Shown here: positions 2,768-61,410 of the stretch, piece by piece
Layout: each line of letters opens with the position of its first letter
How positions within the stretch are numbered: the stretch's first letter is position 1
Notes under the pieces: generated by a model
What the model was told of the DNA's origin: nothing
Databases searched by the model: none
The model's input: the letters and a program-made list of their open reading frames with translations, nothing else
NCBI RefSeq assembly: GCF_055900595.2
Contig: NZ_CM148325.1
Length of the DNA: 64,000 nucleotides
Reading direction: 5' to 3' (one strand)
Made by a program: the position numbers and the translations under genes

Positions 2768-3613
2768 TCAGCCACGTCTTGCACGCTGGATGTCGCGTAT
2801 CCGCTGTTTTTCTGCGCGCGCCATCAGATACCAGGCGATAAATCCGACAATTCCGACCGCGCCGAGGATCAATGTTGCCAGGGCGTTGATTTCCGGATTT
2901 ACCCCCATCCGCACGCTGGAGAAGACCAGCATCGGTAACGTGGTGGCTCCTGGCCCGGAAACAAAGCTGGCAATCACCAGATCGTCGAGCGACAGAGTAA
3001 AAGCCAGTAACCAGCCAGAAATGATCGCGGGCATGATCATCGGTAGCGTAATGACGAAAAACACTTTCAGTGGCGTCGCACCAAGATCCATCGCTGCTTC
3101 TTCTATCGAGCTATCCAGTTCCCGCAGACGCGACGAAATAACGACTGCCACATAAGCCGTACAGAAAGTGACATGCGCCAGCCAGATGGTGAGCATGCCT
3201 CGCTCCGCAGGCCAGCCGATGGCATGTGCAAGTGCGACGAATAACAACAACAGCGACAAGCCTGTGATGACATCTGGCATTACCAGCGGCGCGGTGATCA
3301 TAAAGGCAAAACCATTTGATCCGCGAAACCTGCCAAAACGCACCAGCACTACCGCCGCAATCGTCCCGAGGATCGCCGCTGCCGTTGCCGCACAGGCTGC
3401 AATTGTCAGGCTTAAACCAACCGCGCTCATCATCGCGTCATCACGCAGTAATTCGCCATACCAGCGCGTTGACCAACCCGCCCATACCGTCACCAACTTC
3501 GAGCTGTTGAATGAATAGATCACCAGCATCAGCATTGGCGCGTAGAGAAAGGTGAAGCCCAGCAGCAAAATCACAATCCGCCAGGGCGAACGAACCACCG
3601 GTAAATTATTCAT
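2768..3613 (-). CDS. potI: putrescine ABC transporter permease PotI
   Basis: 281 aa from ATG at 3613 (MNNLPVV...); ATG overlaps potH stop (ATGA); ABC permease signature. Confidence 0.92.
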   Translation of the reverse strand: MNNLPVVRSPWRIVILLLGFTFLYAPMLMLVIYSFNSSKLVTVWAGWSTRWYGELLRDDAMMSAVGLSLTIAACAATAAAILGTIAAVVLVRFGRFRGSNGFAFMITAPLVMPDVITGLSLLLLFVALAHAIGWPAERGMLTIWLAHVTFCTAYVAVVISSRLRELDSSIEEAAMDLGATPLKVFFVITLPMIMPAIISGWLLAFTLSLDDLVIASFVSGPGATTLPMLVFSSVRMGVNPEINALATLILGAVGIVGFIAWYLMARAEKQRIRDIQRARRG

Positions 3614-4563
3614 CCGTGTTCTCCCACGCTTTTTTGCTGATGCTTGTGGAACCACATTATCGGCACAATTAGCAGCAGCAACATGATGATCGCTACCGCC
3701 GAGGCCACCGGCCAGTCGCGGTTATTGAAAAACTCCTGCCACAGCACGCGCCCGATCATGATGCTGTCCGGGCCACCGAGCAGTTCAGGGATCACAAACT
3801 CGCCCACAGCCGGGATAAACACCAGCATCGATCCGGCAATAATCCCGCCTTTGGTCAGCGGCACGATCACAGTAAAGAACGTTTTCAGCGGTCGTGCACC
3901 GAGATCCAGTGCCGCTTCCACCAGCGAATAATCAATACGAATCAACGCGGTATAAATCGGCAGCACCATAAACGGTACATAGGCATAAACAATGCCGATA
4001 TAAACAGCCAGGTTTGTATGCAGAATGGTCAGCGGCTGGTCGATAACTCCCAGCCACAGCAGAAAGTTATTCAGCACGCCGTTATTTTTTAATATTCCCA
4101 TCCAGGCATAGACGCGGATCAGAAACGAGGTCCACGACGGCAGGATCACCAGCAGCAATAAGATATTGCGGGTCGAAGGCTTACTGTGCGCCACCGCCCA
4201 CGCCAGCGGATAGCCGATCAGTAAACAACAAATTGTCGAAATCGCCGCTACCTGTAACGACTGGAGATATGCATCGAAATAGAGCGGATCGTCAGTCAGT
4301 TGCAGGAAATTACCAAGATTGAGGGTGATGGAAAGTTGCCCGTCAGCCCACTCCATCAGTTCGGTATAAGGTGGAATAGCGCGCGCCATCTCCGCCAGAC
4401 TTATTTTAAAGACGATCAGAAATGGCAGCAGAAACAGTAAGATCAACCAGATATACGGCAACGCAATGACCAGTTTGCGCCCATGCTTCATTTGCAGCTG
4501 CGACAACCACAGCTTAAATCCGCCCGGCGGTTTCGACTGGGCAGCAGGTTCAAGTGTACTCAT
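3610..4563 (-). CDS. potH: putrescine ABC transporter permease PotH
   Basis: 317 aa ORF, multi-TM ABC permease, operon position. Confidence 0.93.
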   Translation of the reverse strand: MSTLEPAAQSKPPGGFKLWLSQLQMKHGRKLVIALPYIWLILLFLLPFLIVFKISLAEMARAIPPYTELMEWADGQLSITLNLGNFLQLTDDPLYFDAYLQSLQVAAISTICCLLIGYPLAWAVAHSKPSTRNILLLLVILPSWTSFLIRVYAWMGILKNNGVLNNFLLWLGVIDQPLTILHTNLAVYIGIVYAYVPFMVLPIYTALIRIDYSLVEAALDLGARPLKTFFTVIVPLTKGGIIAGSMLVFIPAVGEFVIPELLGGPDSIMIGRVLWQEFFNNRDWPVASAVAIIMLLLLIVPIMWFHKHQQKSVGEHG

Positions 4564-4572
4564 CTTTGCTCC

Positions 4573-5706
4573 TTAAACCGTCAACACCACACAGCTGTCC
4601 ACTTCCCAGCACAAACGCACTTCGTCGCCCCAGGTCGGTAACCCTTTGCGATAACGATGGGCGTTTTGTAGCTGGGCGCTAATCATTTGCCCGCTTTTTA
4701 GACGAACGTGATACACCGAAAGATCGCCGAGATAGGCAATGTGCATCACCTCCCCTACCGCGAAGTTACAACCATTGGCGGGCGGTGCTTCGCAAAGCAT
4801 GATTTTTTCCGGCCGCAGCGCCACATGCACCGGCACGTTATCGACCACCGAAGCATCTACATCAACTTTCAGTGGATGCACCAGCCCCGGCGAATAAAGC
4901 ACCAGACCATCTTCCTGACGCTCTTTGAGTACACCTTCAAAGACGTTTACCGAACCGATAAATTCAGCACTGTAGCGCGTGGTCGGATGCTCGTAGATCT
5001 CTTCCGGCTCGCCAATCTGGACAAATTTCCCACGATTCATAATGGCGATACGCCCCGCCATCGTCATCGCCTCTTCCTGATCGTGAGTAACCATCACGCA
5101 GGTCACACCGACACGTTCCAGAATATCCACCACTTCAAGCTGCATCCGGTCACGCAGTTTTTTATCCAGCGCGCCCATCGGCTCGTCGAGCAGTAATAGT
5201 TTCGGACGTTTGGCGAGGCTTCGGGCCAGCGCCACACGCTGTCGCTGACCGCCGGAAAGCTGATGCGGTTTGCGTTTGGCGAACTCCTGCATATGCACCA
5301 GCCCAAGCATCTCATTGACCCGGCTGGCAATTTCCGCTTTCGGCAATTTGTCCTGTTTCAGGCCAAAAGCGATGTTCTGTTCCACGGTCATATGCGGAAA
5401 CAGCGCGTAAGACTGAAACATCATATTGATAGGGCGCAGGTAAGGCGGTACCTGTGATAAATCGACGCCATCGAGCATAATCTGCCCGGCAGAAGGTTGT
5501 TCGAAACCTGCCAGCATACGCAGCAGCGTGGACTTGCCACAGCCGGATGCGCCCAGCAGCGCGAAGATTTCGCCTTTATAGATGGTCAGGCTGACATCAT
5601 CGACCGCATGCTGACCATCGTAAGATTTAGTCAGATTACGGATTTCTAATAGCGGCGTCAGCGCCTTACGGGTTTTCGCCTGGGGGCGAGGGATAGCGTC
5701 ATTCAC
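4573..5706 (-). CDS. potG: putrescine ABC transporter ATP-binding protein PotG
   Basis: GTG start at 5706 (plus-strand CAC at 5704..5706) gives 377 aa beginning (M)NDAIPRPQAK; Walker A GASGCGKST, LSGGQRQR signature. Confidence 0.9.
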   Translation of the reverse strand: MNDAIPRPQAKTRKALTPLLEIRNLTKSYDGQHAVDDVSLTIYKGEIFALLGASGCGKSTLLRMLAGFEQPSAGQIMLDGVDLSQVPPYLRPINMMFQSYALFPHMTVEQNIAFGLKQDKLPKAEIASRVNEMLGLVHMQEFAKRKPHQLSGGQRQRVALARSLAKRPKLLLLDEPMGALDKKLRDRMQLEVVDILERVGVTCVMVTHDQEEAMTMAGRIAIMNRGKFVQIGEPEEIYEHPTTRYSAEFIGSVNVFEGVLKERQEDGLVLYSPGLVHPLKVDVDASVVDNVPVHVALRPEKIMLCEAPPANGCNFAVGEVMHIAYLGDLSVYHVRLKSGQMISAQLQNAHRYRKGLPTWGDEVRLCWEVDSCVVLTV

Positions 5707-5800
5707 GGCTGCTCTCCGGCATTGAATGTGTGCAAGCGCACCCTGATGGTGCGAATTGCCGGCGGGTGTGGTGCGCCCGTCCGGCATCTACGGCTGCGGA

Positions 5801-6913
5801 TTATTTTCCGCTCTTCACTTTGGTCCACGCGCGGGTGCGCACACGGTCGATTTTCGGATCCTGCACTTTCAGAGTGAACAGCTTCGCACGGACATCCGCA
5901 GGCGGGTAAATACCGGGGTTATCACGCACTTCCGCGCTTACCAGCGGCGTAGCTTCTTTGTTCGCGTTGGCATAGAACACATGGTCAGAGATATGCGCTA
6001 CGACATCCGGACGCAGCAGGTAATTCAGGAACTGATAAGCTTCGTCTTTATTTTTGGCATCCGCAGGCATGGCAAATACATCAAAGAATGCCATCGCCCC
6101 TTCTTTCGGAATCGAGAACGAGACATTCACGCCATTCTTTGCTTCCTTCGCGCGGTTTGACGCCTGCCAGACATCGCCCGCCCAGCCAATAGCGACGCAG
6201 ATATCGCCGTTTGCCAGGTCGTTAATGTATTGAGATGAATGGAAATAACGAATGTTCGGGCGCAGCTTTAACAGCAGATCGGTTGCCGGTCCGGTGTAAT
6301 CATCTGCTTTAGTGCTGTTGGGATCTTTACCGAGATAATTCAGCACGGTAGCAAACACTTCTTCCGGTGCATCAAGGAAAGAGACGCCGCAGCTTTTCAG
6401 TTTTTCCAGATTTTCAGGTTTGAGGATCAAGTCCCAGCTATCGACGGGCGCGTTTTCACCCAGTACAGCTTTGACTTTATCGACGTTATAGCCAATCCCG
6501 GTCGTCGCCCACATATAGGGCATAGCAAATTTATTATCCGGGTCATGTTTAGCGACCAGCTTCAGCAGTTCCGGGTCGAGATTCTTCCACTCCGGCAATT
6601 TGTTTTTATCCAGTGGCTGGAAAACTCCCGCTGTCAGCTGGCGTTCAAGAAAGCTTGCTGACGGCACCACCAGGTCAAACCCGGTGCTCCCCGCCATTAA
6701 TTTTCCTTCCAGTACTTCGTTGGAATCGAAAACATCGTAAACGACTTAAATACCGGTTTCTTTTTCAAAATTGGCCACCGTATCCGGGGCGATATAATCA
6801 GACCAGTTATAGATGTGGAGTGTTTTTTGTTCAGCCGCGAGCGTGCCGACAGAGACGGCCATCAGAGCACCCGCAACCAGACCCGATAGCCATTTTTTAT
6901 TTAAGGCGGTCAT
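5801..6913 (-). pseudogene. potF: putrescine-binding periplasmic protein PotF, interrupted by in-frame TAA stop at codon 56
   Basis: ATG at 6913 ([11 protein letters not shown]... signal peptide) and stop at 5801 span the 370-codon length expected for PotF, but plus-strand TTA at 6746..6748 is an in-frame TAA (...FEKETGI*VVYDVF...); ORF track splits the gene into 6746..7063 and 5801..6697 in the same frame. Confidence 0.85.
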
Positions 6914-6972
6914 ATCTCTTTCCTTCTGAAAGTTCGTTAACAAACGAACAAAAGTTGTCACACTGAAAGATA

Positions 6973-6988
6973 TGCAATATTCGTGCAT
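6973..6988 (-). promoter_or_regulatory. putative sigma54-like -24/-12 element upstream of potF
   Basis: minus-strand ATGCACGAATATTGCA resembles TGGCAC-N5-TTGCA but has TG instead of GG at -24; low confidence. Confidence 0.2.
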
Positions 6989-7263
6989 ATTTTTTATCGG
7001 CTCGGTGTAAGAAAAGAGAACTCTCTCCCGGCCAGCACTGCTCGCTATATAAAAGCATCGCAAGAATAACTTTAGCCAGGGTTTGAGACTATAGCTCGAT
7101 TTAAAAAACGGTATTTAACAAATTTTTATGCGTATTTGCTCTATGTGATAAAGCCAAATCGGCACAAGAGAAGTGAAATAATCTTTAAGAAGAGGTTAAA
7201 AACAGCAGATAATTTTGCAGCACGCAGTCACTGCGGCAGCGACTGCGTACTCTAAAGGAGTTA

Positions 7264-7740
7264 TCAGTGGAGGAAATAGTTTTCGGTAACGTTGTTTTGC
7301 CCTTCATCGTCAGTCGGTAACAGCAGTTGATGGGCATTAGCTTCAAGAATGACCATCGAAATCTGCTCTTCGCTCTGACGCACGAACCATGCAAACTGCT
7401 CATAGGTTACGCCCTGCATAACGGATAAAGACTGGCAAACCACCAGCTTTGGCAGATTATCATCCTGCATATCAAGAAATGCTTTCACGGTCAGCGAACT
7501 GGCATTGATGGCTGATAAATCCGCCGCCAGCGGTAACACGGCTGAAGGTCGGACTTCCGCCATGGCAGAAAACAGGATCGTGTTATCGATCAGATCGATT
7601 TTGGCATCAAAGACACCGTCGAAATTCTGCATATGGGGCAGATGCAGAGCCTGACAGTTATCACATTCAAAAAAACTCATCCCCAGGTCATCGAGCCATT
7701 GACGCAACGTATCCAGACCAGGAACGACCAGCGATGTCAT
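7264..7740 (-). CDS. ybjN: YbjN family protein (putative sensory transduction regulator)
   Basis: 158 aa from ATG at 7740 (MTSLVVPGLD...). Confidence 0.9.
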   Translation of the reverse strand: MTSLVVPGLDTLRQWLDDLGMSFFECDNCQALHLPHMQNFDGVFDAKIDLIDNTILFSAMAEVRPSAVLPLAADLSAINASSLTVKAFLDMQDDNLPKLVVCQSLSVMQGVTYEQFAWFVRQSEEQISMVILEANAHQLLLPTDDEGQNNVTENYFLH

Positions 7741-15793: not shown

Positions 15794-17024
15794 ACCCTTC
15801 GTGCGAATTACCCATCTGTTTATCTTTTAAAAAGATAACCATCAGCAGCAGCCACAAAATCCCGTTGGCAAGGTTGAAGAGATTAAACAGGCCATTTCCC
15901 CCATTCAGCCAGGCATGTTTGCTGATTTCAATACCGACGGTAAAAATAAGCATTTGCAACATTCCCATCGCCGCAGAAACCGTACCTTTACTCATATCGC
16001 TGGCAAACAGGGTCAATCGCACCAGTCCCGCATTCGCCAGGCCAATACCGAAAGCATAAATACTTAACCCGGCGGTCATCCACAAATACGCGTGCGATGA
16101 GATAACCGTTGCCGCAGCAGCGACCAACAGGCCAATCATAATCGGCCAGCCGCCCATAATAATCAATGAACGTACGGTGCGGCGCGAGGTCAGACGCGCT
16201 AGCAGCAAGTTACCCGCAATTAATGCCCCGAAAATAGGCACTTGCAGCAAGCCATATTCATAACTGCTCAACTGCTCGCCGGTAATGATGATAATCGGCG
16301 ACTGGGCGATCCACGCCAGCAACGGCAGGCTAACGAATCCCAGCGCCAGTGCCCCTGCCACAAAGCGACCGTTCTTCAGCACCAGCTTATAGTCACGACC
16401 GAGTTCTTTCAGCGACAGTTTCTCGCCTATACGCGTGGCGGTTTCAGGCATGGCTCGTTGCAGACCGAAAAAGGAGATCGCTGCCAATGAGGCAAACAAG
16501 ACGAACATCCCTTCCCAGGGCAGCACATGGATCCACGCCGCGCCCACCAGCGGACCAAGTAGCGGAGCAATCAGCGCCACGTTCGCCATCAGCGCGGTGA
16601 TCTTGATACAAACCGCCTCTTCGAAGGACTCCTGAATTGCGGCGTAACCCACAGCGCCAATGAAACAGAGGCTTATGCCCTGCAAGAAGCGCAACAGCGT
16701 GAATTGTTCAATGTTTTGCGCCAGTAATATCGCCAGACAAGTGATGATAAACCACACTACCCCCGCCAGCATCACCGGACGGCGACCAATACGATCCGAC
16801 AGTGGTCCCAGCAGCCACTGTAAAAACATCCCGCCCGCCAGATACGCGGTCATCGAAGTAGGAACCCAATCAATGCCCGCCTGATACTGCTCCACCACGG
16901 CCAACATGCCGGGTTGAATCATATCGTTGCCGATATAGGTTGAAAATTCGTAAAGCACCAGACAGAGAGGGAAAAGTAACGCCTGACGTCCAAGCCTGGC
17001 ACCGGAAGCTAATCTATTTTGCAT
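15792..17024 (-). CDS. mdfA: multidrug efflux MFS transporter MdfA (Cmr)
   Basis: 410 aa from ATG at 17024 ([20 protein letters not shown]...). Confidence 0.93.
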
Positions 17025-17309
17025 GCAATTTCTTCGCCAATAATAATCGCGCAAAGTTTAATAAAAGCGCAGCTAACGAGAAAGCGAATTTTGTAGCTGA
17101 AACTTCGGTTAAGCACATTCTTACATTATTGCGAGTATAGCTACGCTTTCTTTAAGTTTTATTTAACCTATGCTCGTTACAATCAGCCACCGTAAACAGG
17201 GCCGCTTGAGGGAAATAAGACGATGCCGCTTTACCCAGTTTAACCTGCACTTTATTCTCAACGACTTGCCTGTATTGGCTCCCTTTTAATCACTTTGCGT
17301 CGGGAAGTT

Positions 17310-37289: not shown

Positions 37290-38189
37290 ATGATTTTCAA
37301 TATTCAGCGCTACTCGACCCATGACGGCCCCGGTATCCGCACGGTCGTTTTTCTTAAAGGCTGTTCACTGGGCTGCCGCTGGTGTCAGAACCCGGAAAGC
37401 CGCGCCCGCACGCAGGATCTGCTGTATGACGCACGTCTGTGCCTGGAAGGCTGCGAGCTGTGCGCTAAGGCCGCGCCGGAAGCGATTGAGCGCGCGCTGA
37501 ATGGTTTGCTTATTCATCGGGAAAAGTTAACCCCGGAGCATCTGACGGCGTTAACCGACTGCTGCCCGACACAGGCGTTAACCGTGTGTGGTGAAGTGAA
37601 AAGCGTTGAGGAGATCATGGCGACCGTTCTGCGCGACAAACCGTTTTACGATCGCAGCGGCGGCGGCTTAACGCTTTCCGGTGGTGAGCCGTTTATGCAG
37701 CCGGAAATGGCGATGGGGCTACTGCAAACCAGCCACGAAGCCGGTATTCATACTGCGGTAGAAACCTGTCTGCATGTGCCGTGGAAATACATCGCCCCTT
37801 CTCTGCCGTATATCGATCTGTTTCTTGCCGATTTAAAACACGTTGCCGACGTGCCGTTTAAACAGTGGACCGACGGTAACGCCGCCAGAGTGCTGGATAA
37901 CCTGAAAAAACTCGCAGCGGCGGGGAAAAAAATCATCATCCGCGTGCCGTTGATACAGGGCTTTAATGCCGATGAAACCTCTGTGAAAGCCATTACCGAT
38001 TTTGCCGCCGACGAGCTGCACGTCGGCGAAATTCATTTCCTGCCCTACCACACGTTGGGCATCAACAAATATCACTTACTTAATCTGCCCTATGACGCCC
38101 CGGAAAAACCGCTTGATGCGCCAGAACTGCTCGACTTTGCCCTGCAGTATGCCTGCCAGAAAGGGTTAACCGCGACCTTACGAGGATAA
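37290..38189 (+). CDS. ybiY: glycyl-radical enzyme activating protein YbiY (PflE)
   Basis: 299 aa from ATG at 37290; radical SAM CxxxCxxC (CSLGCRWC) plus extra Cys-rich ferredoxin-like insert. Confidence 0.9.
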
Positions 38190-52467: not shown

Positions 52468-52626
52468 GCAGCCCACCTCAACGCACTTATTTAGTGCATC
52501 CATCTGCTATCTCCAGCTGATTAAGTAAATTTTTTGTATCCACATCATCACACAATCGTTACATAAAGATTGTTTTTTCATCAGGTTTTACGCTAAATAA
52601 TCACTGTGTTGAGTGCACAATTTTAG

Positions 52627-52657
52627 CGCACCAGTTTGGTGCCCCAGAATGGTGCAT
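52627..52657. promoter_or_regulatory. tandem NtrC binding sites of the glnH promoter
   Basis: GCACCAGTTTGGTGC and CCCCAGAATGGTGCA match TGCACCA-N3-TGGTGCA. Confidence 0.7.
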
Positions 52658-52729
52658 CTTCAGGGTATTGCCCTATAAATCGTGCATTACGTTTTTGCCG
52701 CATCTCGATAAATCAATGAGTTGCAAAAC

Positions 52730-52745
52730 TGGCACGATTTTTTCA
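52730..52745 (+). promoter_or_regulatory. sigma54 promoter glnHp2 (-24/-12)
   Basis: TGGCACGATTTTTTCA, about 55 bp upstream of glnH ATG, downstream of the NtrC sites. Confidence 0.7.
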
Positions 52746-59127: not shown

Positions 59128-61410
59128 ATGGAAAACAATCGCAATTTCCCTGCCAGACAATTTCATTCGCTCACGTTCTTTGCCGGTCTTTGTATTGGCA
59201 TCACGCCTGTGGCACAGGCACTCGCCGCCGAAGGGCAAGCTAACGCGGATGACACGCTGGTTGTCGAAGCATCAACGCCTTCGCTTTACGCGCCACAACA
59301 ATCTGCCGATCCGAAATTCTCGCGTCCGGTAGCAGATACTACCCGCACGATGACGGTGATTTCTGAACAAGTGATTAAAGATCAGGGTGCAACCAACCTT
59401 ACCGATGCGCTCAAAAACGTCCCCGGCGTGGGTGCATTTTTTGCTGGTGAGAACGGTAACTCCACCACTGGCGACGCCATTTATATGCGCGGTGCCGATA
59501 CTTCTAACAGTATTTATATTGATGGGATTCGCGATATCGGCAGCGTCTCGCGCGACACTTTCAATACAGAGCAGGTCGAAGTAATTAAAGGGCCGTCCGG
59601 CACCGACTACGGGCGCAGCGCGCCGACGGGCTCGATCAATATGATCAGCAAGCAGCCGCGCAATGATTCAGGCATTGACGCTTCCGCCAGTATTGGCAGC
59701 GCCTGGTTCCGCCGCGGCACGCTGGACGTCAATCAGGTCATTGGTGATACCACCGCGGTGCGCCTGAATGTGATGGGTGAAAAAACGCACGATGCCGGAC
59801 GCGACAAAGTTAAAAATGAGCGTTACGGCATCGCCCCTTCTGTCGCTTTTGGCCTTGGCACAGCGAATCGTTTGTATCTTAATTATCTGCATGTCACCCA
59901 GCACAACACGCCAGACGGCGGCATTCCGACCATCGGTTTGCCGGGCTATTCTGCCCCATCGGCGGGAACGGCGGCCCTGAATCATTCCGGAAAAGTTGAT
60001 ACGCATAACTTTTACGGCACGGATTCCGATTACGACGATTCGACCACCGACACCGCTACCATGCGTTTTGAGCACGACATCAACGATAACACCACCATTC
60101 GCAACACTACCCGTTGGTCGCGCGTGAAGCAGGATTACCTGATGACGGCGATTATGGGCGGGGCGTCGAATATTACCCAGCCCACCAGCGATGTGAATAG
60201 CTGGACCTGGTCACGCACGGCGAATACCAAGGATGTGAGTAATAAAATTCTCACCAACCAGACCAACCTGACCTCGACGTTCTATACCGGTTCTATCGGT
60301 CATGATGTCAGTACTGGCGTGGAATTTACCCGTGAAACGCAGACTAACTATGGCGTTAATCCGGTGACGTTACCTGCGGTGAATATTTATCATCCTGACA
60401 GCAGCATTCATCCTGGCGGCCTGACGCGTAACGGCGCAAACGCCAATGGTCAGACGGATACCTTCGCAATTTATGCCTTCGATACGCTGCAAATCACCCG
60501 TGATTTTGAGCTGAACGGCGGGATCCGTCTGGATAATTATCATACTGAATATGACAGTGCCACCGCCTGCGGCGGCAGTGGCCGAGGTGCCGTTACCTGC
60601 CCAGCTGGCGTGGCGAAAGGTTCTCCGGTCACCACTGTTGACACCGCCAAGTCTGGCAATCTGGTGAACTGGAAAGCCGGGGCGCTGTATCACCTGACGG
60701 AAAACGGCAATGTCTATATTAACTATGCCGTTTCCCAGCAGCCTCCGGGCGGCAACAACTTCGCCCTTGCGCAGTCTGGCAGCGGTAACAGTGCCAACCG
60801 CACCGATTTTAAACCGCAAAAAGCCAACACCAGCGAGATTGGCACCAAATGGCAGGTTCTGGATAAACGCCTGTTGCTCACCGCCGCGCTGTTCCGTACT
60901 GATATCGAAAATGAAGTTGAGCAAAATGATGACGGAACTTACTCGCAATACGGTAAGAAACGCGTCGAAGGCTATGAGATATCCGTGGCCGGGAATATCA
61001 CTCCCGCGTGGCAGGTGATTGGCGGCTATACCCAGCAAAAAGCAACCATCAAAAACGGCAAAGATGTTGCCCAGGATGGTTCCTCATCGCTGCCGTATAC
61101 CCCGGAGCACGCCTTTACCTTATGGAGCCAGTATCAGGCAACCGATGATATCTCTGTTGGCGCGGGCGCTCGCTATATCGGCAGTATGCATAAAGGTTCA
61201 GACGGCGCGGTGGGAACGCCAGCATTTACCGAGGGTTATTGGGTCGCCGATGCCAAACTGGGGTATCGGGTTAATCGCAATCTCGACCTCCAGCTAAACG
61301 TCTACAACCTGTTTGATACCGATTACGTCGCCTCAATCAACAAGAGCGGCTACCGTTATCACCCGGGCGAGCCAAGAACCTTCCTGCTTACCGCCAATAT
61401 GCATTTCTGA
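59128..61410 (+). CDS. fiu: TonB-dependent catecholate siderophore receptor Fiu
   Basis: 760 aa; signal peptide, TonB box DTLVVEA, C-terminal F. Confidence 0.95.
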   Translation: MENNRNFPARQFHSLTFFAGLCIGITPVAQALAAEGQANADDTLVVEASTPSLYAPQQSADPKFSRPVADTTRTMTVISEQVIKDQGATNLTDALKNVPGVGAFFAGENGNSTTGDAIYMRGADTSNSIYIDGIRDIGSVSRDTFNTEQVEVIKGPSGTDYGRSAPTGSINMISKQPRNDSGIDASASIGSAWFRRGTLDVNQVIGDTTAVRLNVMGEKTHDAGRDKVKNERYGIAPSVAFGLGTANRLYLNYLHVTQHNTPDGGIPTIGLPGYSAPSAGTAALNHSGKVDTHNFYGTDSDYDDSTTDTATMRFEHDINDNTTIRNTTRWSRVKQDYLMTAIMGGASNITQPTSDVNSWTWSRTANTKDVSNKILTNQTNLTSTFYTGSIGHDVSTGVEFTRETQTNYGVNPVTLPAVNIYHPDSSIHPGGLTRNGANANGQTDTFAIYAFDTLQITRDFELNGGIRLDNYHTEYDSATACGGSGRGAVTCPAGVAKGSPVTTVDTAKSGNLVNWKAGALYHLTENGNVYINYAVSQQPPGGNNFALAQSGSGNSANRTDFKPQKANTSEIGTKWQVLDKRLLLTAALFRTDIENEVEQNDDGTYSQYGKKRVEGYEISVAGNITPAWQVIGGYTQQKATIKNGKDVAQDGSSSLPYTPEHAFTLWSQYQATDDISVGAGARYIGSMHKGSDGAVGTPAFTEGYWVADAKLGYRVNRNLDLQLNVYNLFDTDYVASINKSGYRYHPGEPRTFLLTANMHF

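Follow-up and report, generated by a model that had tools for sequence, protein, structure and literature searches.

A probable weak sigma-54 promoter upstream of a disrupted potF gene

A stretch of 64,000 nucleotides (NCBI RefSeq assembly GCF_055900595.2, contig NZ_CM148325.1; hereafter the window) carries, upstream of potF, what is probably the sigma-54 promoter or sigma-54 binding site of the potFGHI operon, a weak site of closed-complex formation that is activated by NtrC under nitrogen limitation. The feature is already known, being an EcoCyc prediction, the ChIP-seq site OS08 and part of the NtrC regulon, and its presence in the window adds little beyond annotation: the window carries the documented sigma-54- and NtrC-linked control region of a putrescine importer. 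The case illustrates that a real but very degenerate -24/-12 element can be spotted from sequence without tools. The added value is comparative and consists of modest leads: a conserved TG at -25/-24, a downstream NtrC-type site that is gained and lost with the element, and a covarying leader hairpin.

In the mechanism we propose, sigma-54 RNA polymerase would bind ATGCAC (-24) and TTGCA (-12) at 6973-6989 and form a closed complex facing potF. Upon nitrogen limitation, phosphorylated NtrC would open this complex through DNA looping over 1.2 kb, from its only recognisable, conserved site for the operon (5737-5753, in the potF-potG spacer). The transcript would begin close to position 6962, with a leader of about 49 nt. 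The activity of the element in the window strain, its start site and the looping over 1.2 kb are what we infer.

The element and its K-12 orthologue

Positions 6973-6988 read tgcaatattcgtgcat on the plus strand and hence ATGCACGAATATTGCA on the minus strand. The 17-mer TATGCACGAATATTGCA (6973-6989, minus strand) is assigned as a sigma-54 -24/-12 promoter element by orthology, by its score in a position-specific matrix (PSSM 10.96 bits) and by conservation. Its -24 region is ATGCAC, against a consensus of TGGCAC, and its -12 region is TTGCA (6973-6977), so that the GC doublet at -13/-12 within TTGCW is present, whereas the GG doublet at -25/-24 is replaced by TG. The window and all element-bearing orthologues keep the spacing of TGGCAC-N5-TTGCA exactly. 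The element is intergenic and lies within the 350-bp ybjN-potF spacer (ybjN stop at 7264; potF ATG at 6913-6911), 60-75 nt 5' of potF and oriented to it, in a gene order, nfsA-rimK-ybjN-potF-potG, that is the order of E. coli K-12 in reverse orientation. A preliminary description of this DNA had proposed a sigma-54-like element on the minus strand upstream of the disrupted potF, and the sequence reads as it claimed. The rule of Bonocora et al., which places the start 19 nt past the motif centre, predicts transcription from 6962 (minus strand; MG1655 893,735), 49 nt before the potF ATG; the same rule gives 49 bp for K-12. The potF Shine-Dalgarno sequence, AAGGA (6921-6925, minus strand), was read from the sequence and is invariant in the alignment of orthologues.

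The K-12 orthologue is TATGCACGTTTATTGCA, and across the spacer the alignment of the window with K-12 and a close relative is gap-free. The two sites share the locus, the strand relative to potF and the predicted 49-nt distance from transcription start to ATG, and are identical at 15 of 17 bases. All informative positions are shared, and the N5 spacer is GAATA in the window and GTTTA in K-12 (TT to AA). GAATA is a minor allele: the identical 56-mer occurs in 16 of about 4,800 matching E. coli records, the majority of the records depart from it by exactly the two K-12 bases, and the sampled E. coli variants otherwise differ only in the length of an upstream run of A, with the core unchanged.

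Published sigma-54 sites provide a scale for these alleles. The log-odds matrix was built from 134 sigma-54 ChIP-seq sites, the potF site having been omitted from the 135 that were published (Bonocora et al., 2015). This matrix gives 10.96 bits to the window element, 8.91 bits to the K-12 allele and 14.4 bits to the median true site. The window allele thus stands about 2 bits above the K-12 allele and gives no hint that the element is decaying, although potF itself, unlike its K-12 counterpart, is a pseudogene. The potF site ranks between 129 and 134 among the 135 published sites, which agrees with the earlier judgement that the match is weak. The missing first G of the -24 GG had also been noticed: T is found there, and is kept in all 29 distinct orthologous sequences. 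That this G is absent in only five of the 135 published sites counts against a sigma-54 promoter, and marks the G as a usual feature but not an absolute one.

The binding of sigma-54 at the K-12 orthologue has been reported. TATGCACGTTTATTGCA is the ChIP-seq site OS08 (peak 892944, fold-above-threshold or FAT 2, PSSM 6.83); its motif lies on the potF strand with a predicted start 49 bp from potF, and it carries the flag 'P', which marks promoters that EcoCyc had predicted before (Bonocora et al., 2015; PMC4591121). These data bear out the sigma-54 identity suggested in the preliminary description, which had also proposed a comparison with curated sigma-54 promoters; by that comparison the element is the orthologue of a published site, though one near the bottom of the scores. 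The low in vivo occupancy in K-12 (FAT 2) weighs against a promoter, and Bonocora et al. choose 'binding site' over 'promoter' on purpose (PMC4591121). In vitro, the genome's highest gSELEX peak of the RpoN holoenzyme is assigned to the ybjN-potF spacer, with a peak coordinate of 892632, about 300 bp upstream of the motif (Shimada et al., 2021).

Expression data point the same way as binding. On nitrogen depletion, RT-qPCR finds a 6.0-fold increase of potG mRNA and a 3.2-fold increase of potI mRNA, an activation that according to the authors needs both RpoN and NtrC (Shimada et al., 2021). Their source for NtrC control of the operon is Zimmer et al. (2000). The expectation that potFGHI would be nitrogen-regulated if the element is functional is supported by this induction in K-12. 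The targets of the RT-qPCR were potG and potI, not potF, and the authors speak of the 'potG promoter' (Shimada et al., 2021); this coverage, like the 300-bp offset of the gSELEX peak, counts against our reading.

An NtrC-type site within the operon

The ybjN-potF spacer (350 bp) contains no site resembling TGCACC-N5-GGTGCA at up to three mismatches, which speaks against the proposed promoter in that the activator must then work from 1.2 kb downstream. There, in the potF-potG spacer, lies a candidate enhancer, the NtrC-type palindrome CGCACC-ATCAG-GGTGCG (CGCACCATCAGGGTGCG, 5737-5753). It has two outer mismatches to TGCACC-N5-GGTGCA, lies about 30 nt before the GTG of potG and is about 1.24 kb downstream of the promoter element, an atypical position. 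It coincides with an in vitro gSELEX peak of NtrC (95%) at 894130, in the potF-potG spacer (Shimada et al., 2021). NtrC ChIP-seq has no peak between glnHPQ and rutA, hence none in vivo at potF (Brown et al., 2014), which also argues against NtrC activation here.

More than 20 species keep the palindrome while its N5 varies freely; Escherichia, Citrobacter, Leclercia, Lelliottia and Silvania have it as CGCACC-N5-GGTGCG, and the Cedecea version matches TGCACC-N5-GGTGCA perfectly. With up to two mismatches it follows potF in 25 of the 32 species that bear the promoter element, with three mismatches at the same place in three more, and in none of about 33 species that lack the element, in a table that includes one row produced by a slicing artefact. 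Salmonella is without both; since the species counts are phylogenetically non-independent, this joint absence amounts to one informative event within the family. Reitzer and Magasanik (1986), a paper that Shimada et al. (2021) cite, reportedly relocated NtrC sites and found action from distant and from downstream positions. On the most economical reading, looping would let NtrC that is bound in the potF-potG spacer act on the potF promoter.

A second sigma-54 promoter, serving potG, was considered and rejected: the matrix scan finds no sigma-54 motif of at least 6 bits between the palindrome and potG. The sole motif on the potG strand near the palindrome scores 7.3 bits and lies about 530 bp upstream, inside potF.

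These observations bear on the alternative that best survives, according to which the sigma-54 holoenzyme binds in a poised or occluding state without meaningful transcription of potF, sigma-70 or sigma-38 promoters under Lrp, ArgR and ArcA dominate, and a separate nitrogen-induced start near the NtrC site serves potGHI. Low ChIP occupancy and the guarded term 'binding site' suit such an arrangement, as does the description of repressive RpoN sites by Shimada et al. (2021), who treat potG as the NtrC/RpoN target. EcoCyc annotates Lrp, ArcA and ArgR sites at the potF promoter, so that other forms of the polymerase probably also transcribe potF; Lrp is published as present on the potF promoter in all conditions tested, with potF among the targets that Lrp and sigma-54 share, and potF expression is seen in ordinary media. 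Against a separate potGHI start, only about 30 nt lie between the palindrome and potG, and the matrix finds nothing of 6 bits or more there, the nearest candidate being the one inside potF. A simple sigma-70 consensus scan of 6850-7300 also finds nothing on the potF strand, a crude scan that leaves room for an atypical sigma-70 or sigma-38 promoter. The co-occurrence of element and palindrome, and the loss of both in Salmonella, also count against this alternative, which we consider unlikely. As for ArgR, an ARG-box scan of the K-12 spacer gives one match with three mismatches about 205-220 nt upstream of potF; this is at chance level (52 of 200 shuffles), and the match does not overlap the sigma-54 element.

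Conservation of the core

To assess conservation, one genome per species was scanned with a degenerate pattern for potF codons 33-45; the scan gave 88 loci, whose upstream DNA was inspected. TATGCAY-N5-TTGCAT, with its non-consensus T at -25, is conserved upstream of potF in at least ten genera of the Enterobacteriaceae. The element-bearing species include members of Escherichia (albertii, whittamii and E1V33), Citrobacter (many species), Leclercia, Lelliottia, Silvania, Pluralibacter, Pseudocitrobacter, Kluyvera, Entomohabitans, Cedecea and, with a single representative, Enterobacter, and TATGCAY-G/A-NNNN-Y-TGCA is what the matrix scores highest in the 250 nt before their potF ATG. Most of these genera have the predicted start 48-51 nt before the ATG; the distance is 85 nt in Cedecea and 59 nt in Lelliottia and RIT714, whose leaders contain a 10-nt duplication. 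Across 29 distinct Enterobacteriaceae sequences ATGCA and TGCAT never change, and TGCA is invariant across genera, whereas the spacer is free to vary, with base counts such as A13/T14, T24/A4 and C15/T8/A6. An invariant core with a free spacer is what one expects of a constrained -24/-12 element.

The element was not found upstream of potF in Yersinia, Serratia, Rouxiella, Lonsdalea, Hafnia or Pseudomonas in the 88-species comparison, and Salmonella arizonae and diarizonae have a degenerate version with AGGCA as its -12 region. This distribution agrees with table S5 of Bonocora et al. (PMC4591121), in which the PSSM scores are about 6.7-8.1 for Citrobacter, Enterobacter, Klebsiella, Cedecea, Raoultella and Cronobacter, 2.6 for Salmonella and about 0-4 for more distant species. 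potF goes unmentioned in the paper on the Salmonella sigma-54 regulon (Samuels, 2013), and the Bonocora supplement includes ChIP-qPCR primers for potF of S. enterica (PMC4591121).

Other motifs were met in the same upstream regions. Pseudocitrobacter and Kluyvera have an extra canonical sigma-54 motif, TTGGCGAGGTTYTTGCA (15.6-16.6 bits), about 80 nt beyond the TATGCA element and about 130 nt upstream of potF, as measured from its predicted start to the ATG; the two Pseudocitrobacter species are without the NtrC-type palindrome after potF. Yersinia and Serratia, which are without the sigma-54 element, have in common a palindrome, TTGYATC-N5-7-GATRCAA, about 40-60 nt upstream of potF, where another regulator presumably binds.

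The invariance of the core extends beyond the sigma-54 consensus. A(-26), T(-25) and T(-10), which the sigma-54 consensus does not require, are invariant in the 29 sequences and complete a perfect dyad, ATGCA-N7-TGCAT, to which Pluralibacter gergoviae adds one extra compensated pair. The site could thus be primarily the dyad operator of some transcription factor, with its -24/-12 likeness secondary. The spacing of the half-sites equals that of the NsrR consensus, and a literature search found no paper tying potF to NsrR in E. coli regulation. TGCA is self-complementary, however, so that the dyad follows mostly automatically from the direct repeat TGCA...TGCA. The A-rich bases upstream fit the extended sigma-54 consensus. 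The motif is also strongly directional, with about 10.9 bits forward and 1.0 bit in the opposite orientation, and the binding that has been measured at the K-12 orthologue is that of sigma-54. An operator as the primary function is therefore very unlikely.

The bare consensus match is not above chance: at up to two mismatches the window yields 22 matches to TGGCAC-N5-TTGCA, where shuffles yield 28.4 +/- 5.8. By the matrix the element is 20th of about 128,000 window positions, and about 0.05 hits this good are expected, by our arithmetic, per 350-nt spacer on one strand. The matrix puts two published sites at the top of the window, glnHp2 (52729-52745) and OS07 (17024-17040, minus strand), and with the potF site as the anchor of the mapping OS07 falls exactly on its published motif centre; that both land on published sites validates the coordinate map. 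Three further hits of 14.2-15.1 bits, at 35264-35280 (plus), 59140-59156 (minus) and 38143-38159 (minus), are absent from the high-stringency list of Bonocora et al. at the matching K-12 positions and are probably intragenic. The potF element stands out from chance by its orthology and conservation rather than by the quality of the match. A chance resemblance without function would accord with the consensus count and with the 19 window positions that score higher, but is hardly credible for a core that is kept at a fixed position across genera while its neighbours vary, and whose orthologue is a published binding site.

The leader, the potF pseudogene and related sigma-54 sites

The predicted 5' UTR of potF contains a stem-loop, GTTCGTT-TGTT-AACGAAC (6932-6949, minus strand), a few bases upstream of the Shine-Dalgarno sequence and present in the minimum-free-energy fold of the leader. 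Its four outer pairs are kept in all 29 distinct Enterobacteriaceae sequences with compensatory changes, the variants including GCGCG/CGCGC, GTCCG/CGGAC and GCCCG/CGGGC. One pair is UA in 12, CG in 10, GC in four and UG in three sequences, and another is UA in 24 and CG in four. The stem-loop has a covariation score of 0.275; shuffles score 0.103, none of 500 reaches 0.275, and slid controls collapse. The stem-loop is without an Rfam family, a search of 6700-7300 having returned sub-threshold noise only. It could be an RNA element, with a role that may lie, for example, in translational or polyamine-responsive control, or it could overlap the ArcA site annotated in EcoCyc. From these alignments one may also conceive, as a rather doubtful extension of the sigma-54 promoter reading, that T(-25) is selected and that the operon combines a deliberately weak sigma-54 promoter, an intra-operon NtrC enhancer 1.2 kb downstream and a regulatory leader stem-loop (6932-6949).

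In the window, potF (5801-6913, minus strand) is a pseudogene with TAA at codon 56 (6746-6748). The change is K56* (AAA to TAA), the 370-codon frame being otherwise undamaged. The 66-mer around the stop has no identical copy in 5,426 complete E. coli genomes, a collection without Shigella genomes, and its best match there has one mismatch. The complete E. coli genomes closest to the window (99.7% identity over 601 nt) are all without the stop, and the nearest relatives with the same promoter allele have potF intact. The genes downstream are intact on the minus strand: potG (4573-5706, GTG start) by the list of open reading frames, the sequence and the K-12 annotation, and potH (3610-4563, 317 aa) and the open reading frame that contains potI (2768-3655) by the list of open reading frames.

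Since PotF is truncated at residue 55, the ABC transporter is left without its binding protein, and the promoter would at best express potGHI without it. A polar effect of the stop on potGHI is possible. The promoter is intact here yet probably a functional relic that serves no purpose, and because potF is a pseudogene the system as a whole is probably decaying in the window strain.

Two known sites help to place the potF element. The first, glnHp2 (52729-52745, plus strand), is a canonical NtrC/sigma-54 promoter of an ABC transporter and like potF has a -24/-12 element. It differs in having the full GG doublet (CTGGCACGATTTTTTCA) where potF has TG at -25/-24, and in having a cluster of NtrC-like sites at 52482-52656, about 75-250 bp upstream, whereas the sole NtrC-type site of potF is 1.2 kb downstream. 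glnHp2 is also bound by NtrC in vivo, as found by ChIP-seq (Brown et al., 2014).

The second is the ygfT site OS32 (TATGCCCGTTTATTGCA). OS32 differs from the potF site in belonging to a purine/urate catabolism cluster, in its left arm ATGCC, which makes the dyad imperfect, and in being poorly conserved in other genera (Bonocora et al., 2015, table S5; PMC4591121). It too has low occupancy (FAT 3) and lies about 36-49 nt from a start codon. OS32 and the potF site are the only published E. coli sites with T at -25, and they match at 19 of 20 positions when the K-12 potF site is compared (ATATGCnCGTTTATTGCAT), a likeness too close for chance.
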